64,000 nucleotides of DNA from Candidatus Nealsonbacteria bacterium (GTDB lineage Bacteria; Patescibacteriota; Minisyncoccia; Minisyncoccales; MHMH01): assembly GCA_016188865.1 (NCBI GenBank), contig JACPGX010000001.1:205197-269196 (forward strand). Direction: 5' to 3'. Made by a program: the position numbers and the translations under genes. Within the stretch, counting starts at the first letter, position 1, and every line of letters begins with the position of its first letter. This document shows positions 9,026 to 58,607 of the stretch, piece after piece. The notes beneath the pieces are model-generated. The model did not search any database and had not been told where the DNA came from. It worked only from the letters and a program-made list of their open reading frames with translations.

Positions 9026-9067
9026 GAGGTCCGACCTCCCGACAAATATGACGGGAGGTCGGACCTC
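9026..9067. repeat. PE hairpin element, intergenic copy (gaggtccgacctcccg-10 nt-cgggaggtcggacctc)
   Basis: 16-bp perfect stem. Arms are identical to the copy inside tsaD (34384-34425). Confidence 0.9.
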
Positions 9068-12281: not shown

Positions 12282-13684
12282 ACACGTTTATTGTACCACC
12301 AAATAAAGCCAAACAGAATGAAATAAAAAACTATCAGCCAAAGCCAGTGCAAATTGCCCACAGCCATGGAAACTAACGGCATTTTGCTAAACCAATCAAC
12401 AATTTTCGTAATATATGTCAAAGAAAGCCAAACGGGCCAAGACAATAAAAACCCAAGAGGTTGCAAGATAATACCGAAAATTGCAAAAATAAAAATTAAG
12501 ATAGTAATTGGAGCCAAAAAGGGAACTATTAAAATATTAACAACAGGACTCAATAAGGATATTCTGCCAAAATTATAAGCTAAAATCGGCAAAGTAAAAA
12601 CTTGGGCCGAAAGAGTAGCAGATAAAGTGGTTCTTAATGGAAAAACTTTTGGATTAGGTAAAAGCCTTAGCCAATTTGAAAAATACGGCTCTAAATAAAT
12701 AAGGCCTAAAATGGCTAAAAAAGAAAGCTGGAAACCTACGTCTTTCGTCAAGAGAAAAGGATTTTGAACAAGCATAAAAGTTGCCGCAAAAAATACCGCT
12801 CTTGAGCCGGATGACATGCGTCCTAATTTTTTAGCTAAAATAAAAATAACGGCCATAATAAAAGCCCTGACAGCTGAAGCCTGGGCTCCGATCATTAAAA
12901 TGTAAAGAAAAAGCAAAACTATCGAAATATAAAACGGCGCAAAGGAAGATATTATAGAAGAAATAATGGTTATATTCATTCCGGAAACCGCCGCAATATG
13001 GCGGGTGCCGGTAATATTGAGCTTGTCTTTCCATTCTCGGGAAATATTAGATTCTTGGCCGAAAACTAATGCCTCCAAAAAACCTTCTTGCGGCGGCGAA
13101 ATAAAAGAACCGGCGGTATCTCTAAATTTATTTTTAAAAGATAAAATAATTTCCATTATCGGGTTGCCAAACCCGGAACTCATAAACTCAATTTTTGGAA
13201 AACTCATTACTGCCGTAATGCCGTCTTTTTTAAGATAATCACGATAGTTAAAATCATCGAAAACCGGCGGCATTTCCAAACGGCCAATAATTTTTAGTCT
13301 ATCCCCATAATTATATTTCGGATACCTCCCCGCCGTCACCAAAATCGGGCGAGAACCGTTCTCGCCCGATTTTATCACAAGCTTTATGCTAGCAGGCCTG
13401 ACATCGGGTTCTTTAACCACGATTCCGACAAACTCGACATTCCCTTCTTGGGGATAAACAATTTTTGACTCCGCCATCTGATACCGCCAAATTCCCAAAA
13501 CTAAAAACAGTAAGCAAAATCCGCCCGTAGCCAGTTTTTTATAACGCCAAAAAATTGAAATTAAAAATACTCCAATAATTAAAAAACCCAGTAAAAATAA
13601 CTGGGGCATAAAAATAAATGAACTCGCAAAAATTCCTCCTACAAACGCCAGACAAAAATACAAAAATATCCGCGACTTAGTCAT
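12248..13684 (-). CDS. comEC: ComEC/Rec2 DNA-uptake channel protein (no metallo-beta-lactamase domain)
   Basis: N-terminal TM plus OB-like region, HIAAVSGMNITI, many TM segments. Confidence 0.85.
   Translation of the reverse strand: MTKSRIFLYFCLAFVGGIFASSFIFMPQLFLLGFLIIGVFLISIFWRYKKLATGGFCLLFLVLGIWRYQMAESKIVYPQEGNVEFVGIVVKEPDVRPASIKLVIKSGENGSRPILVTAGRYPKYNYGDRLKIIGRLEMPPVFDDFNYRDYLKKDGITAVMSFPKIEFMSSGFGNPIMEIILSFKNKFRDTAGSFISPPQEGFLEALVFGQESNISREWKDKLNITGTRHIAAVSGMNITIISSIISSFAPFYISIVLLFLYILMIGAQASAVRAFIMAVIFILAKKLGRMSSGSRAVFFAATFMLVQNPFLLTKDVGFQLSFLAILGLIYLEPYFSNWLRLLPNPKVFPLRTTLSATLSAQVFTLPILAYNFGRISLLSPVVNILIVPFLAPITILIFIFAIFGIILQPLGFLLSWPVWLSLTYITKIVDWFSKMPLVSMAVGNLHWLWLIVFYFILFGFIWWYNKRVWQVQLKKPGW
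13341..13373. repeat. REP-3-like hairpin variant in-frame in comEC (aaaatcgggcgagaac-c-gttctcgcccgatttt)
   Basis: 33-nt perfect palindrome translated KSGENGSRPIL. It shares the core cgagaaccgttctcg with REP-3. Confidence 0.85.
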
Positions 13685-23973: not shown

Positions 23974-24009
23974 TGTGTACTATATATCACATATAGATGG
24001 AAAAGTCAA
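23958..24009. promoter_or_regulatory. Face-to-face promoters sharing one palindromic -10 box: TTGACA-17-TATATA-17-AGTCAA
   Basis: Plus strand: -35 at 23958-63 and -10 at 23981-86, driving mfd (ATG 23997). Minus strand: -35 is revcomp of 24004-09 with the same -10, driving the NUDIX leader. Confidence 0.55.
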
Positions 24010-26024
24010 CGGTGCCGGGTGTTAAATCGATTCTAATCGTCAGTATCAACCCCTACTTTTTAGACAGGGAGAATTTTTGGTTTGAAGAAAATATCAAACA
24101 AATACTGGAAGCGCGGAAAAATCAAACCTTCTTTCAAGATAATACCATATATGTAGACGTAGAAAAAAGCCCCGCCTTCGCCAAGGCTTCGGCGGGCAAG
24201 CAGAAAATTAAGCTTTCTGAATTTTTAAGAAAAATTGATGAAATGGGCTATGAAAAAGTTCAAAAGGTCTCCGAGCCCGGAGAATTTTCCCGCCAAGGAG
24301 GAATTATTGATATTTTCCCGTTAAATATAAATTGTGCCGTTAGAATTGAATTTTTCGGCAACTCAATAGAAAACATGGAAAAACTGCCCATTATTATTGA
24401 AAATGAAAAAGAAATCAAAGAAAGAATAAAAAATAAACTGAAAAGGCAGAAAATTTACTCGCAATTGGGAACATTAAAGCCGGGTGATTATTTGGTGCAT
24501 CTAGACCACGGCGTCGGAATTTACAGAGGTCGGACCTCCCAAGGAGGTCCGACCTCAAACGACTCAAACGATTACTACACATTGGAATATGCCCAGAACG
24601 ATAAACTCTATGTTCCGATTGGGCTGGAAAGAAAACTTTCAAGATATGTTGGATTTTCAGAGCCGAAAATATCGCGGCTAAGCTCGCCCGTCTGGATAAA
24701 CACCAAAAGAAAAATTAAAGAAGAAACTGAAAAACTAGCTAAAGAACTTTTGGAAATTTACGCCCAGAGAGAAATTTCAACTCGCCCATATTATATAGAA
24801 GATACGGAAATTGACGCCTTGCTGGCAAGTACTTTTGTTCACGAAGAAACTCCGGATCAAATCCAAGCCATGGAAGAAATTAAAAAAGATTTGGAAGAAA
24901 AAGAAGAGCCAATGGACAGAATTGTTTGCGGCGACGTGGGTTTTGGCAAAACTGAAATTGCCTTAAGGACCATTATTAAAGCGGTCAATTCCGGATATCA
25001 ATCGGCTTTGATTTGCCCAACCACTATTTTGGCCTCGCAGCATTGCCAGACTTTCCAAAAAAGAATTGGTGATCTTCCGATAAAAGTTGAATTATTAAGC
25101 CGTCTTCAATCAAAGAGGGAGCAGAAACAAATAATTCAAAATATCAAAGATGGCAAAACAGATATCGTTATAGGAACCCACCGCCTTTTATCAAATGACG
25201 TTAACTTTAAAAACTTAGGATTGCTGGTTATTGACGATGAACAAAGATTCGGAGTCAGGCAGAAAGAAAAATTAAAAAAAATAAGGACTTCCCTAGATGT
25301 TTTATCGCTTTCAGCCACGCCAATTCCCAGAACCCTCTACTTGGCCATGTCTTCTTTAAAAGATATCAGCATAATTCAAACGCCGCCTGCTCAACGGCTT
25401 CCGATTAAAACTTTGGTAAAACCATGGTCAAAAGAAATCATTAAAAAGGCAATTCAGGAAGAAATTTCGCGCAACGGCCAAGTTTATTACCTGCACAATC
25501 GCGTAGAAACTATTGAAACAGCAAAAAAATTGCTGGAAGATTTACTGCCGAAAGTAAAATTTGGAATTATCCACGGCAAAATGGAAGAAAAAAATTTAAT
25601 AAAGATAATGGATGATTTTACCAATAAAAAAATTGGCGTTTTAATCGCTACCACCATTATTGAAAACGGCCTGGACCTGCCCAATGTCAACACTTTAATT
25701 GCGGCCAATGCCGCCAAACTCGGACTTTCCCAGGCATATCAAATAAGAGGCAGAATCGGCAGGTCGCACATTCAGGCATTCGCTTATTTCTTGCATGGCG
25801 GCAATCTTTCTGAGCTAGCAAAGGAAAGATTAAGAGCTTTAAAAGAGGCGGAAGAGCTTGGTTCGGGATACCGAATTGCCATGAAAGATTTGGAACTTCG
25901 GGGCGCCGGCAACATTCTAGGAAAAGAGCAATCAGGCAACATCAACCATGTGGGACTGAATCTATATTGTCAAATGTTATCCGATGCGATTGAAAAACTG
26001 AAGGCTTACGATTATAATAAATAA
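23997..26024 (+). CDS. mfd: Transcription-repair coupling factor Mfd (short form, 675 aa)
   Basis: RNAP-interaction module PGDYLVHLDHGVGIY, helicase motifs DVGFGKTE and DDEQRFG, and a TRG-like region. Confidence 0.9.
   Translation: MEKSTVPGVKSILIVSINPYFLDRENFWFEENIKQILEARKNQTFFQDNTIYVDVEKSPAFAKASAGKQKIKLSEFLRKIDEMGYEKVQKVSEPGEFSRQGGIIDIFPLNINCAVRIEFFGNSIENMEKLPIIIENEKEIKERIKNKLKRQKIYSQLGTLKPGDYLVHLDHGVGIYRGRTSQGGPTSNDSNDYYTLEYAQNDKLYVPIGLERKLSRYVGFSEPKISRLSSPVWINTKRKIKEETEKLAKELLEIYAQREISTRPYYIEDTEIDALLASTFVHEETPDQIQAMEEIKKDLEEKEEPMDRIVCGDVGFGKTEIALRTIIKAVNSGYQSALICPTTILASQHCQTFQKRIGDLPIKVELLSRLQSKREQKQIIQNIKDGKTDIVIGTHRLLSNDVNFKNLGLLVIDDEQRFGVRQKEKLKKIRTSLDVLSLSATPIPRTLYLAMSSLKDISIIQTPPAQRLPIKTLVKPWSKEIIKKAIQEEISRNGQVYYLHNRVETIETAKKLLEDLLPKVKFGIIHGKMEEKNLIKIMDDFTNKKIGVLIATTIIENGLDLPNVNTLIAANAAKLGLSQAYQIRGRIGRSHIQAFAYFLHGGNLSELAKERLRALKEAEELGSGYRIAMKDLELRGAGNILGKEQSGNINHVGLNLYCQMLSDAIEKLKAYDYNK
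24526..24556. repeat. PE hairpin element, short-loop copy in-frame in mfd (gaggtcggacctcc-caa-ggaggtccgacctc)
   Basis: 14-bp perfect stem translated RGRTSQGGPTS. The arm sequence matches the copies at 9026 and 34384. Confidence 0.9.
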
Positions 26025-26030
26025 ATTATC

Positions 26031-26057
26031 AATCTTACGAGGCGAAGCCTCGTAAAT
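26031..26057. repeat. REP-2 hairpin, 5'-flank copy (ttacgaggc-gaa-gcctcgtaa)
   Basis: Lies 12 nt upstream of the RAYT-2 ATG. Confidence 0.9.
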
Positions 26058-26069
26058 TCGTAAATTTTA

Positions 26070-26783
26070 ATGAAGAGAGTAATATTCGCCAAAGATCAAA
26101 TCTATCATGTTTATAATCGCGGTGTAGAAAAACGAAATATCTTTTTAGATGATAAAGATTATTTTCGGTTTATTCACAATCTCTTTGAATTTAACGATGA
26201 AAAACCAGCAGAAAATATTTATTATAAACAACCAATGCTTCAGTCGCAGAAAATACAATCTTACGAGGCTTCGCCTCGTAAGATTAATATGCCTAGAAAA
26301 TTACTAGTAGAAATTATGGCATTTTGTCTGATGCCCAATCACTATCATTTATTGCTAAGACAAAAACAAGATAGGGGGATCACCAGATTTATGCAAAAAT
26401 TAGGTACTGGATATTCTATGTATTTTAATCAAAAGCACGAAAGAACCGGAATTTTATTCCAGGGACCGTTCAAGGCCATTTTAGTCGATAGGGAAACTTA
26501 TTTTTATTATTTACCATATTACATTCACTTTAATCCCCTAGATTTGATTGAGCCAGAATGGAGAAATGGCAAAATTAATAATTACAAAGAAGCCTTAAAT
26601 TTTCTGGAAAATTATCGCTGGTCAAGCCATCTTGATTATATTGGCAAGAAAAATTTTCCCTCGGTGACCCAACGGGAATTTCTTTTAGAATACCATCAAA
26701 ATGGAAACCGATATAAACAATCTATTGAAAATTGGCTAAAAGAAATACAACTAGAAAAAATAAAAGATATAATGCTGGAATAA
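26070..26783 (+). CDS. REP-associated tyrosine transposase-like protein (IS200/Y1 HUH family), paralog 2
   Basis: DQIYHVYNRG, FCLMPNHYHLLL, YYIHFNP. Confidence 0.85.
   Translation: MKRVIFAKDQIYHVYNRGVEKRNIFLDDKDYFRFIHNLFEFNDEKPAENIYYKQPMLQSQKIQSYEASPRKINMPRKLLVEIMAFCLMPNHYHLLLRQKQDRGITRFMQKLGTGYSMYFNQKHERTGILFQGPFKAILVDRETYFYYLPYYIHFNPLDLIEPEWRNGKINNYKEALNFLENYRWSSHLDYIGKKNFPSVTQREFLLEYHQNGNRYKQSIENWLKEIQLEKIKDIMLE
26257..26285. repeat. REP-2 hairpin, internal in-frame copy (loop inverted: ttc)
   Basis: aatcttacgaggc-ttc-gcctcgtaagatt, translated QSYEASPRKI. Confidence 0.9.
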
Positions 26784-26811
26784 ATCTTACGAGGCGAAGC
26801 CTCGTAAGATT
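26783..26811. repeat. REP-2 hairpin, 3'-flank copy
   Basis: aatcttacgaggc-gaa-gcctcgtaagatt, starting at the last base of the stop codon. Confidence 0.9.
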
Positions 26812-26854: not shown

Positions 26855-28882
26855 ATGCAACTAATTATAGTAGAAAGTCCGACTAAATCTAAGACGCTTC
26901 AAGGTTTTTTGGGGCCTCAATATAGGGTCCTTTCTTCTTATGGACACATCCGTGATTTGCCGAAAAGTGAGCTTGGCGTTGATGTGGAAAAAAACTTCCA
27001 GCCGAAATACGTAATTCCGGCAAAGGCGAAAAAAACTATAAAAACGCTTACTGAAGCGGTTAAAGAAACTGACTCAACCATTTTGGCCACCGATGAGGAC
27101 AGAGAAGGAGAAGCTATTTCCTGGCATCTCATTAAGGCCCTAAAACTGGACGGCGAAAAAGAGCCGTACCAAAGAATCGTTTTCCATGAAATCACAAAAC
27201 AAGCCGTGGAAGAAGCTTTAAAAAATCCCAGAAAAGTTGACATGAATCTGGTGGACGCCCAGCAGGCAAGAAGGATTCTGGACAGAATTGTCGGCTACAA
27301 GCTGTCTCCGTTCTTATGGAAAAAAATCGCCCGAGGACTTTCAGCCGGCAGAGTGCAATCGGTGGCAGTTAGACTTGTTGTGGAACGCGAAAGAGAAATA
27401 GAAAAATTTAAACCAGACGAGTACTGGACGATTGAAGCCCGGCTCCGACGGAATGAAGCCGGGCTTCTCTCGCCAGAATTTACGGCTTCTTTGGCTAAAA
27501 AAGACGAGAAAATTTTAGATAAGCTTTTTATTAAAAATGAAAAAGAAGCTAAAGAAATAGTAAATAATTTGGGAGGAGCTGAATATAGGATTAGTAATAT
27601 CGAGAAAAAAGAAACAACAAAGAATCCTTATCCGCCGTTTACCACTTCAACATTACAGCAGGAGGCCTGGAGACGTTTTAAATTTCCGGCGAAATTTACC
27701 ATGCGCCTGGCGCAGAATCTTTATGAAAAAGGCTTTATTACTTATCACAGAACGGATTCTTTAAACCTTTCTGATTTAGCGTTAGGAATCGCAAAAAAAT
27801 TCATCACGGAAAATTATGGTCAAACTTATTACCAATTCAGAAAATATAAAGCCAAGGGCCGCGCCCAAGAAGCCCACGAAGCAATCAGGCCGGCTTACCC
27901 GGAAAAAATGGAAATTGAAACCGATGAGCCGGGGGCAAAATTATATAACTTGATTTGGAAAAGATTTATTGCCTGCCAAATGTCGCAAGCCGTTTTTGAT
28001 TCAACAGCGGTTGATATTAATGCGAAAAATTATGGTTTTAGGGCCAACGGCCAAATTCTAAAGTTTGACGGATTTTTAAAGGTTTACCCGATAAAATACG
28101 AGGAGTCGGAACTTCCAAATTTGAAAAAAGATGATATTTTAGAATTGCTCAAACTTTCTCCTCTGCAGCATTTTACTCAGCCACCGGCAAGATACAGCGA
28201 AGCCACTCTGATTAAAGCCTTGGAACAGGAGGGAATAGGACGCCCCTCAACCTATGCCCCGGTTATTTCTACTATTCAGGAAAGAAATTACATTGAAAAA
28301 GATGAAAAAAAATTCTTCAAGCCGACAGAAATAGGCATTGTAGTAAATGATGTTTTGGTAAGACATTTTCCTCAAATAGTTGATATTAAATTTACCGCAT
28401 CAATGGAAGAAGACCTGGATAAAATAGCCGAAGGCGAAAAGAAATGGGAAAAAGTCATGGAAGAATTTTATCGCCCCTTTGAAGAAAATCTTAAAAAAAA
28501 ATATAAAGAAGTTTCAAAAAAAGAATTTACCGAGGAGCCGACTAAAAAAAAATGCCCCAAATGCGGCTCGCCTTTGTTGATCAGATTAGGCAGGTACGGC
28601 AAATTCTATGCCTGCTCGACTTTCCCAAAATGCAATTATACCGAATCACTGCCTAAAAATATCTTAGGAATAAAATGCCCGAAGTGTAATGAGGGGCAGC
28701 TTGTGGAAAAAAGAACGGCCAAGAGGAAAATCTTTTACGGCTGCAATAAGTACCCTAATTGCAATTTTGCTTTATGGGATAAGCCTATCGGAGATAAATG
28801 CCCCAAGTGCGATTCCCTATTGGTGAAAACTAAAAGAAAACAAATCAAATGCTCAAATAAGGACTGCGACTACGCAAGGTGA
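26855..28882 (+). CDS. topA: DNA topoisomerase I with C-terminal zinc ribbons
   Basis: TOPRIM domain (IVESPTK, DEDREGE), active-site YHRTDS, and repeated CPKC zinc-ribbon motifs. Confidence 0.96.
   Translation: MQLIIVESPTKSKTLQGFLGPQYRVLSSYGHIRDLPKSELGVDVEKNFQPKYVIPAKAKKTIKTLTEAVKETDSTILATDEDREGEAISWHLIKALKLDGEKEPYQRIVFHEITKQAVEEALKNPRKVDMNLVDAQQARRILDRIVGYKLSPFLWKKIARGLSAGRVQSVAVRLVVEREREIEKFKPDEYWTIEARLRRNEAGLLSPEFTASLAKKDEKILDKLFIKNEKEAKEIVNNLGGAEYRISNIEKKETTKNPYPPFTTSTLQQEAWRRFKFPAKFTMRLAQNLYEKGFITYHRTDSLNLSDLALGIAKKFITENYGQTYYQFRKYKAKGRAQEAHEAIRPAYPEKMEIETDEPGAKLYNLIWKRFIACQMSQAVFDSTAVDINAKNYGFRANGQILKFDGFLKVYPIKYEESELPNLKKDDILELLKLSPLQHFTQPPARYSEATLIKALEQEGIGRPSTYAPVISTIQERNYIEKDEKKFFKPTEIGIVVNDVLVRHFPQIVDIKFTASMEEDLDKIAEGEKKWEKVMEEFYRPFEENLKKKYKEVSKKEFTEEPTKKKCPKCGSPLLIRLGRYGKFYACSTFPKCNYTESLPKNILGIKCPKCNEGQLVEKRTAKRKIFYGCNKYPNCNFALWDKPIGDKCPKCDSLLVKTKRKQIKCSNKDCDYAR
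27434..27467. repeat. GC-rich hairpin in-frame in topA (gaagcccggct-12 nt-agccgggcttc)
   Basis: 11-bp perfect stem translated EARLRRNEAGLL. Sits in a segment that varies between TopA proteins recalled from memory. Confidence 0.75.
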
Positions 28883-33586: not shown

Positions 33587-34648
33587 TTAGGAGATCCGTA
33601 AATTAGCTTCGGCTTTAATATTTTTTCTGACGTCTTTTCTGTGGAAATAAGCAGTTGCGGCCACCATTGCGGCATTGTCGGTGCACAAATTTTTTGGCGG
33701 AACCAAAAAATTTAGTTTATAGTTTAGAGTTTTTAGTTTATAGTCGAATTGTTTTCTTAACTCTTCATTCGCTGCTACGCCGCCTCCAAGAATGATTGAT
33801 TTTACTCCAAAATCCCTTGCTGCCTTTATGGTCTTATGCATCAAAACATCAATTATCGCCTGCTGAACTTCGTAACACATCTCTATTTTATCATAATTAC
33901 CCTTTTTTACTTTATATAATACGGCTGTTTTAAGACCGGAAAAACTAAAATCATAATTTTTTTGCCTAATCATCGGCCTCGGCAGTTGGTCGGAAACCCG
34001 ACGTCCGACCATTTTTGCGGCTGTGGCTGCAATAGCTGGGCCACCGGGATAGCCGAGGCCTAAAATCCTGGCAACCTTATCAAGGCATTCGCCAGCTGCG
34101 TCATCACGAGTTTCGCCTATTAATTTATATTTTCCGATAGCTTTCATCAAAACTAACTGCGTATGCCCACCCGACACCACCAAAGCCACCGCCGGAAAAA
34201 CTATTGAGGCCGGGCCTCCATAGTGTTCGCTAATGAAATTGGCGAGAATGTGCGCTTCGATGTGGTTGACTGAAATTAATGATTTTTTATATTTTTTTGC
34301 AATTTCTTTGGCAAAGTTGATCCCCTGCCATAAACAGGGTTCTAATCCTGGGCCGACGGTCACGGTGACGAAATCAATTTTTAGAGGTCCGACCTCCCGT
34401 AATATTTTTCGGGAGGTCGGACCTCCTAATATTCTCAAAACTTTTTCAAAGACAACCGGTAAATTCTTTTGATGCTCGCGTTTCGCTAAGAAGGGATAAA
34501 CCCCTCCATATTTTGCGTGGATTTTCACTTGCGAAGAGACTGTATTTGATATAATTTTGAAATTAGAATTTTTTACTTCCAGTAAAGCAATGGCTGTATC
34601 ATCGCAGGAAGTGTCAATTCCTAATATCTTAATATTTTGGGAGGCCAT
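33587..34648 (-). CDS. tsaD: tRNA N6-adenosine threonylcarbamoyltransferase TsaD
   Basis: GIDTSCDDT, VNHIEAH, CTDNAAM. Confidence 0.95.
   Translation of the reverse strand: MASQNIKILGIDTSCDDTAIALLEVKNSNFKIISNTVSSQVKIHAKYGGVYPFLAKREHQKNLPVVFEKVLRILGGPTSRKILREVGPLKIDFVTVTVGPGLEPCLWQGINFAKEIAKKYKKSLISVNHIEAHILANFISEHYGGPASIVFPAVALVVSGGHTQLVLMKAIGKYKLIGETRDDAAGECLDKVARILGLGYPGGPAIAATAAKMVGRRVSDQLPRPMIRQKNYDFSFSGLKTAVLYKVKKGNYDKIEMCYEVQQAIIDVLMHKTIKAARDFGVKSIILGGGVAANEELRKQFDYKLKTLNYKLNFLVPPKNLCTDNAAMVAATAYFHRKDVRKNIKAEANLRIS
34384..34425. repeat. PE hairpin element, in-frame copy inside tsaD
   Basis: gaggtccgacctcccg-10 nt-cgggaggtcggacctc, translated GGPTSRKILREVGP. This gives about 11 extra residues relative to E. 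coli TsaD as recalled. Confidence 0.9.
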
Positions 34649-50576: not shown

Positions 50577-50607
50577 AAAACTGACGAGAACCGTTCTCGT
50601 CAGTTTT
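50577..50607. repeat. REP-3 hairpin, 3'-flank copy (aaaactgacgagaac-c-gttctcgtcagtttt)
   Basis: Ends one base before the RAYT-3 stop codon. Preceded by a partial duplicate, ctgacgaaaa. Confidence 0.9.
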
Positions 50608-51333
50608 TTATTCGATGGCAACACGTTGAGAATCAGCTAATTCTTTTTTGAACTGAAGCCAATCGTTAACGAATCTTTGCCCTTCGCCCGCTCCGCCGAC
50701 TGTTTCAAATAAAAACTCTCTGCTGGTTACTGAAGGAAAATTCCTCTTGCCTAAATAGTCAGAATAACTTGACCATCGGTAATTTTCTAAAAATTCTATT
50801 ATTTCTTGCAATTTCCTGCCGCTAATTCCCCTTTCCTTCCAATTCTGAACTAAAATTGCCACTGGGTTTGTATGAATATAAACGAAAACTGTTATTAATT
50901 GTTTATCATCTTTAACGTGGACTATTTTATATTTTCCCTGAAACAGGTGGCCACTTCTTTTATATTTTTTATTATAATATCCGCCGTATCCCGCCCCAAT
51001 TTTTCTCATAAACTTGCTTATTCCTCCATTTCTTAACTGTCTTACCAGCAGATGCGCGTGATTCGGCATCAAACAAAACGCTAAAATCTCCAATAAACAT
51101 TCCCTGCCCGTATGTCTTTTATACGAACTATCTAAACTGACGAGAACGGTTCTCGTCAGTTTTTGTTCTTGACGATAGTATGAAGAAGTAGGTTTTTCAT
51201 CATTGAATTCAAATAAATCATGAATCATTCTAAAATAATCTTTTTGATCTTTGAAAAGCTTTAACCCTTCTACGGCTCTAATAACGATGTGATAAATTTC
51301 GCCGTTTACTAATGGTGGTCGTTTTATTGGCAT
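50608..51333 (-). CDS. REP-associated tyrosine transposase-like protein (IS200/Y1 HUH family), paralog 3
   Basis: GEIYHIVIRA, FCLMPNHAHLLV, VYIHTNP. Confidence 0.85.
   Translation of the reverse strand: MPIKRPPLVNGEIYHIVIRAVEGLKLFKDQKDYFRMIHDLFEFNDEKPTSSYYRQEQKLTRTVLVSLDSSYKRHTGRECLLEILAFCLMPNHAHLLVRQLRNGGISKFMRKIGAGYGGYYNKKYKRSGHLFQGKYKIVHVKDDKQLITVFVYIHTNPVAILVQNWKERGISGRKLQEIIEFLENYRWSSYSDYLGKRNFPSVTSREFLFETVGGAGEGQRFVNDWLQFKKELADSQRVAIE
51134..51162. repeat. REP-3 hairpin, internal in-frame copy (centre g)
   Basis: aaactgacgagaac-g-gttctcgtcagttt, translated KLTRTVLVSL. Confidence 0.9.
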
Positions 51334-51364
51334 AAAACTGACGAGAACCGTTCTCGTCAGTTTT
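51334..51364. repeat. REP-3 hairpin, 5'-flank copy
   Basis: Starts at the base next to the ATG (51331-33), leaving no room for an SD sequence. Confidence 0.9.
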
Positions 51365-51401
51365 ATTATAACGGAATAAATTTAAATGAAAAGCCCTGAG
51401 C

Positions 51402-55966: not shown

Positions 55967-55996
55967 TCAACAAAAAAGGACGCTAGGCGTCCTTTG
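55967..55996 (-). terminator. Terminator/-35 cassette, copy 1 (caacaaaaaaggacgctaggcgtcctttg)
   Basis: On the minus strand this reads AAAGGACGC-CUA-GCGUCCUUUUUU, followed directly by GTTGAC. Confidence 0.75.
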
Positions 55997-57590: not shown

Positions 57591-57621
57591 AAAACTGACG
57601 AGAACCATTCTCGGCAGTTTT
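57591..57621. repeat. REP-3 hairpin, solo degenerate copy (two mismatches) acting as a terminator
   Basis: aaaactgacgagaac-c-attctcggcagtttt. Confidence 0.8.
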
Positions 57622-57958: not shown

Positions 57959-58041
57959 ATTATATTCACCTCCTTTTTAATGTGCCGCATAATTATAGAG
58001 TACATCTTAGTTCAACGCAAAAAATCTGTCAAGACATCGTA

Positions 58042-58087
58042 TTACGAGACCCGGACTCGTAAAAAATTACGAGTCCGGATCTCGTAA
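58042..58087. repeat. Inverted REP doublet (REPIN-like): ttacgag-acccgga-ctcgtaa / ttacgag-tccggat-ctcgtaa
   Basis: The two hairpins are reverse complements of each other apart from one base. Their stems equal the REP-2 stem. Confidence 0.8.
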
Positions 58088-58104
58088 AACTAGCGGAAAC
58101 CGAA

Positions 58105-58134
58105 ACAACAAAAAAGGACGCTAGGCGTCCTTTG
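58105..58134 (-). terminator. Terminator cassette, copy 2
   Basis: Hairpin identical to copy 1. The -35 part is degenerate (TTGTTG). Confidence 0.7.
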
Positions 58135-58577: not shown

Positions 58578-58607
58578 GTCAACAAAAAAGGACGCTAAGC
58601 GTCCTTT
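58578..58607 (-). terminator. Terminator/-35 cassette, copy 3 (loop taa); contains the etfA stop codon
   Basis: The 5' arm encodes the EtfA C-terminus ..TKDA. GTTGAC follows. Confidence 0.75.

Follow-up and report, generated by a model that had tools for sequence, protein, structure and literature searches.

Palindromes flanking and interrupting a RAYT-like Y1/HUH gene of Candidatus Nealsonbacteria

A stretch of 64,000 nt from Candidatus Nealsonbacteria (the window in what follows) contains three paralogous genes, P1, P2 and P3, whose products resemble the transposases linked to repetitive extragenic palindromes (REPs), termed TnpA_REP or RAYT (REP-associated tyrosine transposase). We describe here the P2 gene, which in this ultra-small bacterium resembles a domesticated transposase gene, and the private palindrome that accompanies it. 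The gene lies at 26070-26783 on the forward strand, stop codon included, and encodes a 237-aa RAYT-like protein of the class-2 TnpA_Y1 type. The palindrome, 29 bases with the stem AATCTTACGAGGC, is present in three copies, one in each flank of the gene and one within it, where the reading frame is kept.

Anatomy of the P2 locus and its paralogs

The pattern CTTACGAGGCNNNGCCTCGTAAG matches the window at 26034-26056 (1 mismatch), 26260-26282 and 26786-26808, with 0 matches expected from 100 shuffles. The 5′-flank copy (26031-26057) has a 9-bp perfect stem at 26035-26055, the loop GAA and one changed foot base, and it ends 13 nt before the ATG. The 3′-flank copy (26783-26811) has a 13-bp perfect stem and again the loop GAA, and it overlaps the TAA stop codon by a single base, position 26783, with which the gene ends and the palindrome begins. 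The internal copy (26257-26285) also has a 13-bp perfect stem; its loop is TTC, the reverse complement of the flank loops, and it is translated in frame as QSYEASPRKI (aa 63-72 of the P2 product). An earlier note on this DNA had described the two GAA-looped flank copies, the overlap with the stop codon, the inverted internal copy and its in-frame peptide. Pattern and stem searches confirm that description, and the internal element is indeed inverted relative to the flanks. The folding energies computed for single-stranded DNA are -8.7 (z -4.4) for the 5′ copy, -13.3 (z -8.1) for the internal copy and -13.5 kcal/mol (z -8.0) for the 3′ copy.

Relatives of P2 carry ...GGCT-W-AGCC..., and its asymmetric GAA/TTC loop is therefore derived. 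All three copies share this asymmetric change, one of them in complementary form, which implies that they stem from a single, recently mutated template.

Sequence and fold comparisons support P2 as a RAYT-like Y1/HUH protein, and the earlier note's naming of the gene as a RAYT paralog is upheld in that form. The protein has the motifs PNHYH (with H91-Y-H93), LFQG, YIHFNP and the tail motif YRWSS, and the class-2 Y motif Y---NP is present in all three paralogs (YIHFNP, YIFTNP and YIHTNP). Y151, within YIHFNP, is the presumed catalytic tyrosine; it is the same in all of 45 sequences and falls at the ‘YI’ of ISDra2 TnpA, to which the HUH-to-Tyr stretch of the protein can be aligned. With Pfam model PF01797 (Y1_Tnp) the three paralogs score 34.1, 33.3 and 43 bits, above the cutoff of 23 (P2, E=3.5e-8). 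A sequence search of the PDB with the P2 protein gave weak matches only (E=0.03), so that a fold search was required to confirm the fold. Foldseek with the AlphaFold model (mean predicted local distance difference test score, pLDDT, 69.5) matched 4er8_A, which is E. coli TnpA_REP bound to a REP hairpin (probability 0.99, target TM 0.48), and 2xo6 (probability 0.99, target TM 0.56-0.60); the ISDra2 and IS608 transposases are among the matches, with probabilities up to 0.99, and the E-values of these fold matches are weak (0.01-0.1). Pfam detected no domain, and in particular no helix-turn-helix (HTH), over the last 80 residues. The protein is 100% identical to an entry annotated ‘transposase [Candidatus Nealsonbacteria]’. 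In the model, the internal palindrome falls in a predicted disordered linker between a helix (28-40) and a strand (80-88), with pLDDT <50 at residues 48-57 and 60-71.

The other two paralogs have the layout that the earlier note had claimed for them, three hairpins built from a palindrome private to each gene. P1 (162-902, minus strand) is 47% identical to P2, and its palindrome, ATACACCGGTT-N-AACCGGTGTAT, is found in the 5′ flank at 924-946, in frame within the gene at 689-711 and in the 3′ flank at 133-163, three copies where 0 are expected. P3 (50608-51333, minus strand) is 44% identical to P2, and its HUH reads HAH; copies of its palindrome, CTGACGAGAAC-N-GTTCTCGTCAG, for which 0 chance matches are expected, are found in the 5′ flank (51332-51366, where the ATG is overlapped), in frame within the gene (51134-51162) and in the 3′ flank (50577-50607). 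The internal copies of both genes are in frame at the linker homologous to that of P2, the 3′ copies adjoin the stop codon, and A-runs and T-runs border some of the flank copies. In the order 5′, internal, 3′, the loops as seen from the gene strand are G/C/C in P1 and G/C/G in P3, so the odd loop is that of the 5′ flank in the former and that of the internal copy in the latter, just as the note had it. The hairpins of the three window paralogs are read in three different codon phases.

P2 is preceded by an mfd-like gene (23997-26024, forward strand) and followed by topA (26855-28882). Directly upstream of the 5′ hairpin there is a promoter-like site, TTGAAA-17-TATAAT (25990-26018, forward strand), with 11/12 consensus matches. 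It is a consensus match only, and the number of such sites in the region, 5 found against 4.9 expected, is itself non-significant. If the site is used, the 5′ hairpin would stand at the very start of the transcript. The locus was found in five independently assembled sequencing runs with 0 mismatches, the same GAA/TTC/GAA loops and the same neighbours, and the arrangement is therefore no assembly artefact.

A side observation concerns assembly itself. In Logan assemblies of SRR12113419-30 (L202-L205), 4/5 short-read contigs with the P2 gene stop exactly at the end of the 3′ hairpin. It seems that de Bruijn-graph assembly of Patescibacteria genomes is interrupted by these palindromes, a matter of some relevance to the quality of metagenome-assembled genomes (MAGs) from this group.

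Recurrence across the family and copies away from the genes

A protein search with P2 returned >7,900 homologs at E<=1e-10. From at least 539 confirmed relative loci, with one genome scanned per species, the 80 best were taken and joined to the three window paralogs, giving 83 loci. The labels of the 80 are nearly all Patescibacteria or Parcubacteria MAGs, and some labels look misassigned. Hairpins were first sought at each locus, after which the hairpin top served as the query for further copies there, with <=2 mismatches in 18 nt accepted. Two internal positions are distinguished: site 1, homologous to P2 residues 53-73, and site 2, at P2 residues ~160-171, just after the catalytic helix.

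A recurring, locus-specific palindrome is present in 64/83 loci. Among these 64, copies lie in the 5′ flank in 57, in the 3′ flank in 54, at site 1 in 47 and at site 2 in 8, and 36 loci combine copies in the 5′ flank, at site 1 and in the 3′ flank. These counts of recurring palindromes are an undercount; L001, for example, has at site 1 a 6-bp form of the palindrome of its flanks, translated as SEVQP. The three-hairpin layout is thus a trait of the family, wider than the Nealsonbacteria genome. In MAGs with two loci (e.g. L008/L013 and L014/L019) the paralogs are likewise divergent, each with its own palindrome.

The family consensus arm is AAnnTnnnGARGTY, with a loop of 1-5 nt. Palindrome pairs 7-9 and 11-12 differ between loci, and at pair 10, which lies outside the search pattern, Watson-Crick pairing is ~0.9. 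The palindrome sequence follows the protein tree (neighbour-joining): CGAGAA tops are found in P3, L062, L072 and L075, and TTACGAGGC is common to P2, L003 and L045. The sister loci L053 and L054 differ by a C:G to T:A pair change that is present in both flank copies and is thus compensated, and in L010 one compensated pair sets the internal copy apart from the two in the flanks. Differences between copies of one locus include 63 compensated changes at pair positions 10-13 against 225 one-sided breaks. The idea that arms are always symmetrised was accordingly set aside, and no symmetrising mechanism is claimed, because one-sided breaks are the commoner kind. G:T mismatches are not enriched over A:C in the stems across loci, and there is consequently no signal of pairing in RNA only.

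In L039, and likewise in L010, the internal copy is itself perfectly palindromic but departs from the flanks at its specificity positions (TCGGAAGTC against AGTGAAGTC). It looks as if these internal copies came from, or were converted by, the palindrome of another paralog.

A shared synteny or a preferred insertion site was considered for the loci and rejected, the neighbours differing among the 80. An mfd gene is also found upstream in L068 and L071, which are ~48% identical to P2 and both have a site-2 copy; at 2/80 this could be chance.

Palindromes are also found apart from the flanks and internal sites. The 2-kb flanks of the 80 loci hold ~16 distal copies. In the window, a solo, degenerate copy of the P3 palindrome (2 mismatches) is intergenic at 57595-57617, ~6 kb from the P3 gene. 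A fourth palindrome species, GAGGTC-S-GACCTC, has the family consensus top and 6 matches in the window against 0.03 expected, and no cognate gene for it was found there. Its matches form three REPIN-like inverted doublets. The first, at 24526-24556, is a perfect palindrome with 14-bp arms in frame in mfd, in the CarD/TRCF RID region, with the peptide RGRTSQGGPTS. The second, at 34384-34425, is in frame in tsaD (33587-34648, minus strand), where it gives the 8-aa insert KILREVGP relative to the TsaD of the metagenome locus L107. The third, at 9026-9067, is intergenic.

A metagenome scan for TTACGAGGCNNNGCCTCGTAA recovered a close variant, AATCTTACGAGGCTWAGCCTCGTAAGATT, at RAYT loci with the 5′/site-1/3′ layout (L096, L110, L119 and L148). 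The variant was also found solo on metagenome contigs without a homolog, most often in intergenic positions just after open reading frames (ORFs). Some of the solo copies are intragenic: the palindrome TTACGAGGCTAAGCCTCGTAA is in frame in a TsaD (L107:2105-3187), a DUF4147/MOFRL glycerate-kinase-like protein (L161:9825-11153, minus strand) and a RecG (L186:2661-4826). These three intragenic copies always read (S/T)YEAKPRK, in the same phase as in the RAYT genes. The host genes with in-frame palindromes (mfd and tsaD in the window; TsaD, RecG and DUF4147/MOFRL in the metagenomes) have full-length Pfam matches. The TsaD of the window and that of L107 each lack the insert of the other. At the position of the L107 insert the window TsaD reads GGPAS, which might be an old remnant.

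Several other repeats were noted in passing. The solo P3 copy at 57595-57617 lies between an A-run and a T-run and resembles a bidirectional terminator. At 13341-13373 there is a 16-bp perfect hairpin, aaaatcgggcgagaacCgttctcgcccgatttt, with the top CGAGAAC-N-GTTCTCG as in the P3 palindrome and a differing middle; it could be a diverged relative of that palindrome, or a terminator. The hairpin AAAGGACGC-TAG/TAA-GCGTCCTTT is found three times in a stretch of 2.6 kb (55975-55995, 58113-58133 and 58587-58607), each time between A-runs and T-runs, like a small family of terminator-like repeats with no obvious link to the RAYT consensus. An intergenic inverted doublet TTACGAG...CTCGTAA at 58039-58090, with loops ACCCGGA/TCCGGAT and AAAA between, has the TTACGAG foot in common with the P2 palindrome. 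A GC-rich repeat from the metagenome scan, CGTTACGAGGCAGAGCCTCGTAACGAG, was set aside as unrelated to the RAYT-like family. Among the metagenome contigs L082-L200 (e.g. L140 and L149), the unrelated GC-rich repeat reads CGTTACGAGGC(AGA/TCT)GCCTCGTAACGAG; on some contigs it is present in several copies 160-220 bp apart.

Loop orientation and the reading frame of internal copies

Since the stems read alike on both strands, the loop alone gives a copy its orientation. Where the loop is longer than one nucleotide, copies that differ do so without exception as exact reverse complements (GAA/TTC, CTC/GAG, TTG/CAA, GCG/CGC, CAC/GTG, CAT/ATG and TCGGT/ACCGA), and the flips are therefore real inversions or copies in opposite orientation, not point mutations. 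The earlier note had implied a link between orientation and gene polarity. Over the 64 loci all three pairings behave randomly, which is the outcome that the note itself had named as refuting such a link: 5′ and 3′ flank copies are in the same orientation in 20 loci and inverted in 28 (p=0.31), the 5′ flank and site 1 in 20 and 23 (p=0.76), and site 1 and the 3′ flank in 22 and 16 (p=0.42). The flank copies of P2 have the same orientation as each other, and the absolute strand orientation of the copies within the window is mixed. These data exclude a fixed arrangement of the copies relative to the gene. The inverted internal copy of P2 is real, but it is one outcome of an orientation that behaves randomly.

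Internal copies do show loop biases, and these come from codon phase. The loops at site 1 seem to favour purines, with G in 22 and A in 7 copies, against C in 9 and T in none, and T is never found because in that phase it gives TGA or TAA. At site 2, where G or A would make a stop codon, the loops are C or T, with an apparent leaning to C. Stop-codon avoidance fully explains the biases of the internal copies, and with the pairwise tests non-significant an orientation rule is rejected. One further pattern was seen at loci with A or T loops (L021, L024, L034, L044, L049, L062, L070 and L078): the gene-strand loop of the 3′ flank is A in 8/8, and that of the 5′ flank is T in 6/10. No coding constraint lies behind the A8:T0 pattern of the 3′ flank, which comes from a small and phylogenetically non-independent sample. 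Strand specificity has been shown for TnpA_REP enzymes, and REPs that are perfect palindromes cannot do without their loop bases (PMC8266576). Given this published specificity, the loop may still decide which strand of a given copy is processed.

The reading phase of site 1 is highly regular. The loop base is codon position 1 in 34/38 site-1 copies with one-nucleotide loops, and the tops read E-V-G-L (GAAGTC-G-GACTTC), E-V-E-P (GAGGTT-G-AACCTC) or D-V-R-R (GACGTC-C-GACGTC). In these translations the amino acids of the internal copy follow the base pairs, not the reverse. Site-1 copies are found across the whole tree and are absent from a few clades (L056/L061/L064/L065, L053/L054/L042 and L035/L049). 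The linkers of clades without an internal copy are 10-20 residues shorter. Site-2 copies are polyphyletic on the protein tree, which implies recurrent insertion, and some clades without site 1 use site 2. At many loci the internal copy is shorter, or more degenerate, than its counterparts in the flanks (in L031, 8 bp against 20-22 bp).

Readings of the locus and its relation to known systems

We consider it fairly probable that the P2 locus is a REPtron-like unit from a large, Patescibacteria-wide branch of class-2 Y1/HUH proteins related to TnpA_REP/RAYT. REPtrons are tnpA_REP/RAYT genes flanked by cognate REPs (Quentin et al. 2018, PMC6006769; Corneloup et al. 2021, PMC8266576), and TnpA_REP acts on single-stranded REP hairpins (PMC8266576). 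The cognate substrate of the P2 protein would be the short palindrome with its perfect two-fold symmetry. By homology with E. coli TnpA_REP and the TnpA of IS608 and ISDra2, the protein would bind the hairpin form on single-stranded DNA and cut and rejoin beside it, whereby copies would be created, moved or replaced. Acting mostly in cis, it would let copies pile up at its own gene, in the 5′ flank and at the stop codon. Copies in coding DNA would persist only if they are in frame, free of stops and within a surface loop. Permissive places in the protein's own gene would be the alphaA-beta2 linker (site 1) and the loop after the helix of the catalytic tyrosine (site 2), and the same would hold in mfd, tsaD and recG. 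The three copies may be kept alike by repeated recopying or conversion from one another; recopying is suggested by the derived asymmetric loop, which all three P2 copies hold and which occurs in both orientations. Orientation would be unconstrained because the stem is identical on both strands, and the loop would flip, whether because copies insert either way round or because the segment between the arms inverts, unless a stop codon results.

Several findings weigh against this interpretation. Across the loci there is no conserved guide, tag or cleavage motif outside the palindrome (~0-0.2 bit), and the conserved positions are all symmetric. With the NCBIfam equivalog model NF047646 (REP-associated tyrosine transposase) the three proteins score 35.8, 37.5 and 45.2 bits, below the cutoff of 80. 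Neither the P1 nor the P2 palindrome has a copy in the 64 kb beyond those at its own gene; dispersal of these two species is thus not seen in the window, and the case for it rests on close variants elsewhere and on the P3 and GAGGTC species. A single ancient, actively maintained insertion fits the ubiquity and phase of site 1 at least as well as passive recurrent insertion does. The earlier note's term ‘REP’ stands only in part: the palindromes have neither a GTAG nor a CGTC tag, that of P2 has no further copy in the window, and the NCBIfam scores of the proteins (36-45 bits) lie below the cutoff of 80.

The main rival reading takes the internal copy, and perhaps all three, for a selected cis-regulatory site: the protein would bind the promoter-proximal 5′ palindrome and the one within its coding region, either extruded from DNA or as a hairpin in the mRNA, so as to repress its own transcription or translation or hold down its dose through self-cleavage, and the identity of the copies would be kept by selection for recognition by the co-evolving protein. 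We regard this as unlikely but possible. The occupation of site 1 in 47/64 loci across the whole tree speaks for such a site, yet several clades lack the internal copy, some having site 2 instead, and many internal copies are shorter and more degenerate than the flanks. The codon phase, kept in 34/38 copies, is a similar case, given that the three window paralogs use three different phases. Peptides E-V-G-L, E-V-E-P and D-V-R-R track GAAGTC, GAGGTT and GACGTC, pairing being kept despite radical amino-acid changes; the stems, though, are without the G:U signature of RNA structure. That IS200 is restrained by hairpins is a further point in favour. The strong promoter-like site just 5′ of the first P2 hairpin and the P3 5′ stem, which takes in the start codon, would suit regulation of this kind, but the same palindromes are in frame in unrelated host genes, where auto-regulation would be senseless.

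It is doubtful, in our judgement, that the intragenic copy, instead of being passively tolerated, is a maintained working part of a Patescibacteria-wide system, whether a self-recognition site that senses or limits its own gene or a protected master copy that regenerates the flank and dispersed palindromes. If true, this would explain the same loop and codon phase in most of the >7,900-member family and a peptide that tracks base pairing. A tag-less, symmetric hairpin told apart only by its loop would then be a sufficient class-2 Y1 substrate.

That the locus is an autonomous insertion sequence (IS) of the IS200/IS605 type we hold to be very improbable. The hairpins would then be left and right ends, the ~780-bp element would move as single-stranded DNA and the internal hairpin would be incidental. 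Size and layout agree with this, the Y1 gene being tightly bracketed by hairpins beside both its ends, and so do the Y1/HUH fold and a presumed recognition of hairpins on single-stranded DNA. The Y motif, however, is the class-2 Y---NP and not the Y---Q of IS200 (PMC6006769, Table 1), and the paralogs of one genome are 44-48% identical, each with its own palindromes, where IS200 copies are ~99% identical. IS200/IS605 elements have multiple near-identical copies and strand-fixed left and right ends; neither is seen here, flanks being in the same orientation as often as inverted, and solo palindromes occur without a gene. Flanking genes do differ among the 80 loci, but the neighbours of P2 are the same in all five assemblies, and mobility of the whole unit was rejected on that ground.

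Finally, the hairpins might have nothing to do with the protein and be either ordinary intrinsic terminators or palindromes that arose by chance. This view, to which the A-runs and T-runs at some P1 and P3 flank copies and the terminator-like score of the internal P2 hairpin on the antisense strand might point, is effectively refuted, since 0 matches are expected, an identical sequence is used three times per locus, including within the ORF, the palindrome co-varies with the protein across >60 loci, and no T-run follows the 3′ copy of P2.

Taken as a REPtron-like unit, the P2 locus shares much with the REPtrons described so far: a class-2 Y1/HUH protein with Y---NP, a gene bracketed by its own palindrome, co-evolution of protein and palindrome, several divergent paralogs per genome, each with a private palindrome family, and solo copies together with REPIN-like inverted doublets. 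REPtron systems are reportedly also treated by Nunvar (2010), Ton-Hoang (2012) and Bertels and Rainey (2011). The Patescibacteria palindromes differ in having neither GT[AG]G nor CGTC as a 5′ tag of the hairpin foot and in stems that are perfect and two-fold symmetric, the strands being told apart by the loop only. Local copy number is very low, the flanks are not preferentially inverted (20 same, 28 inverted), the proteins fall under the NCBIfam REP-transposase cutoff and the hosts are Patescibacteria.

In-frame REPs are known from within tnpA_REP genes of subclass 2.4 (Quentin et al. 2018, PMC6006769). As here, those genes contain their own REP in a peripheral variable region with the frame kept, REPs are also found in unrelated genes, and the ‘double-foot’ REPs of the subclass are symmetric too. 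Its motifs, however, are NH[IFV]H, WQ and YIxNNP, against NHYH, FQ and YIHFNP in P2, and its REP insertion lies between HuH and Y, whereas the P2 insertion (aa 63-72) precedes HuH (91-93) and site 2 follows Y151. The REPs of subclass 2.4 have GT[AG]G feet and its hosts are Cyanobacteria and Bacteroidetes, neither of which applies here.

By motif inspection only, P2 fits the second signature of subclass 2.1 at all four diagnostic positions (NH[YF]H, FQ, Y[IV]HxNP and the SS tail), and its 237 aa compare with a subclass median of ~238 aa. Subclass 2.1, taken here together with Bertels group 1 and the TIRYTs, was nevertheless reported to be without REP-like structures, whereas hairpins flank and interrupt the gene here, and it has a C-terminal HTH-like domain where Pfam finds none in P2. 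Some repeats flanking TIRYTs are self-complementary and overlap the gene ends, as in our loci (Di Nocera et al. 2013, PMC3733652), but the terminal inverted repeats of TIRYTs are of the GGGGWSAS type.

The intragenic REPs catalogued by Di Nocera et al. (2013, PMC3733652) lie in many cases in genes for replication and repair (uvrA, uvrD, recBCD and polA). Genes of repair and nucleic-acid functions carry the palindromes here too, namely mfd, recG and tsaD. Ogata (2000) is said to have described Rickettsia palindromic elements (RPEs), short palindromic repeats in frame in genes that still look functional. RPEs are ~100-150 bp long and, to our knowledge, have no known cognate transposase. The elements described here, by comparison, are 27-45 bp and tied to an identifiable Y1 gene family that itself holds a copy.

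The core phenomenon is already known, since in-frame REPs in tnpA_REP genes (PMC6006769) and intragenic REPs (PMC3733652) have been published. In the literature searched we found nothing that links RAYTs or REPs with Patescibacteria or the Candidate Phyla Radiation. The differences from the published cases lie in the Patescibacteria host, a 2.1-like protein accompanied by palindromes, perfect symmetry without a tag, the insertion sites and the prevalence of the internal copy across the family.

REP/RAYT systems have so far been studied almost only in Proteobacteria and Cyanobacteria. The present loci would extend them to a very large family in Patescibacteria (>7,900 homologs and at least 539 loci), in which the substrate would be pared down to a bare, symmetric hairpin of 27-35 bp and the protein resembles a subclass thought to be without REPs. 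The element is routinely written in frame into proteins in genomes of ~1 Mb: into its own transposase, and into the products of mfd, recG and tsaD, which serve repair and tRNA modification. With a 237-aa protein, a 29-nt putative substrate and a loop of 1-3 nt as the sole mark of strand, this small system may offer a clean model of how a Y1 enzyme chooses its strand and cleavage site without a guide tetranucleotide.

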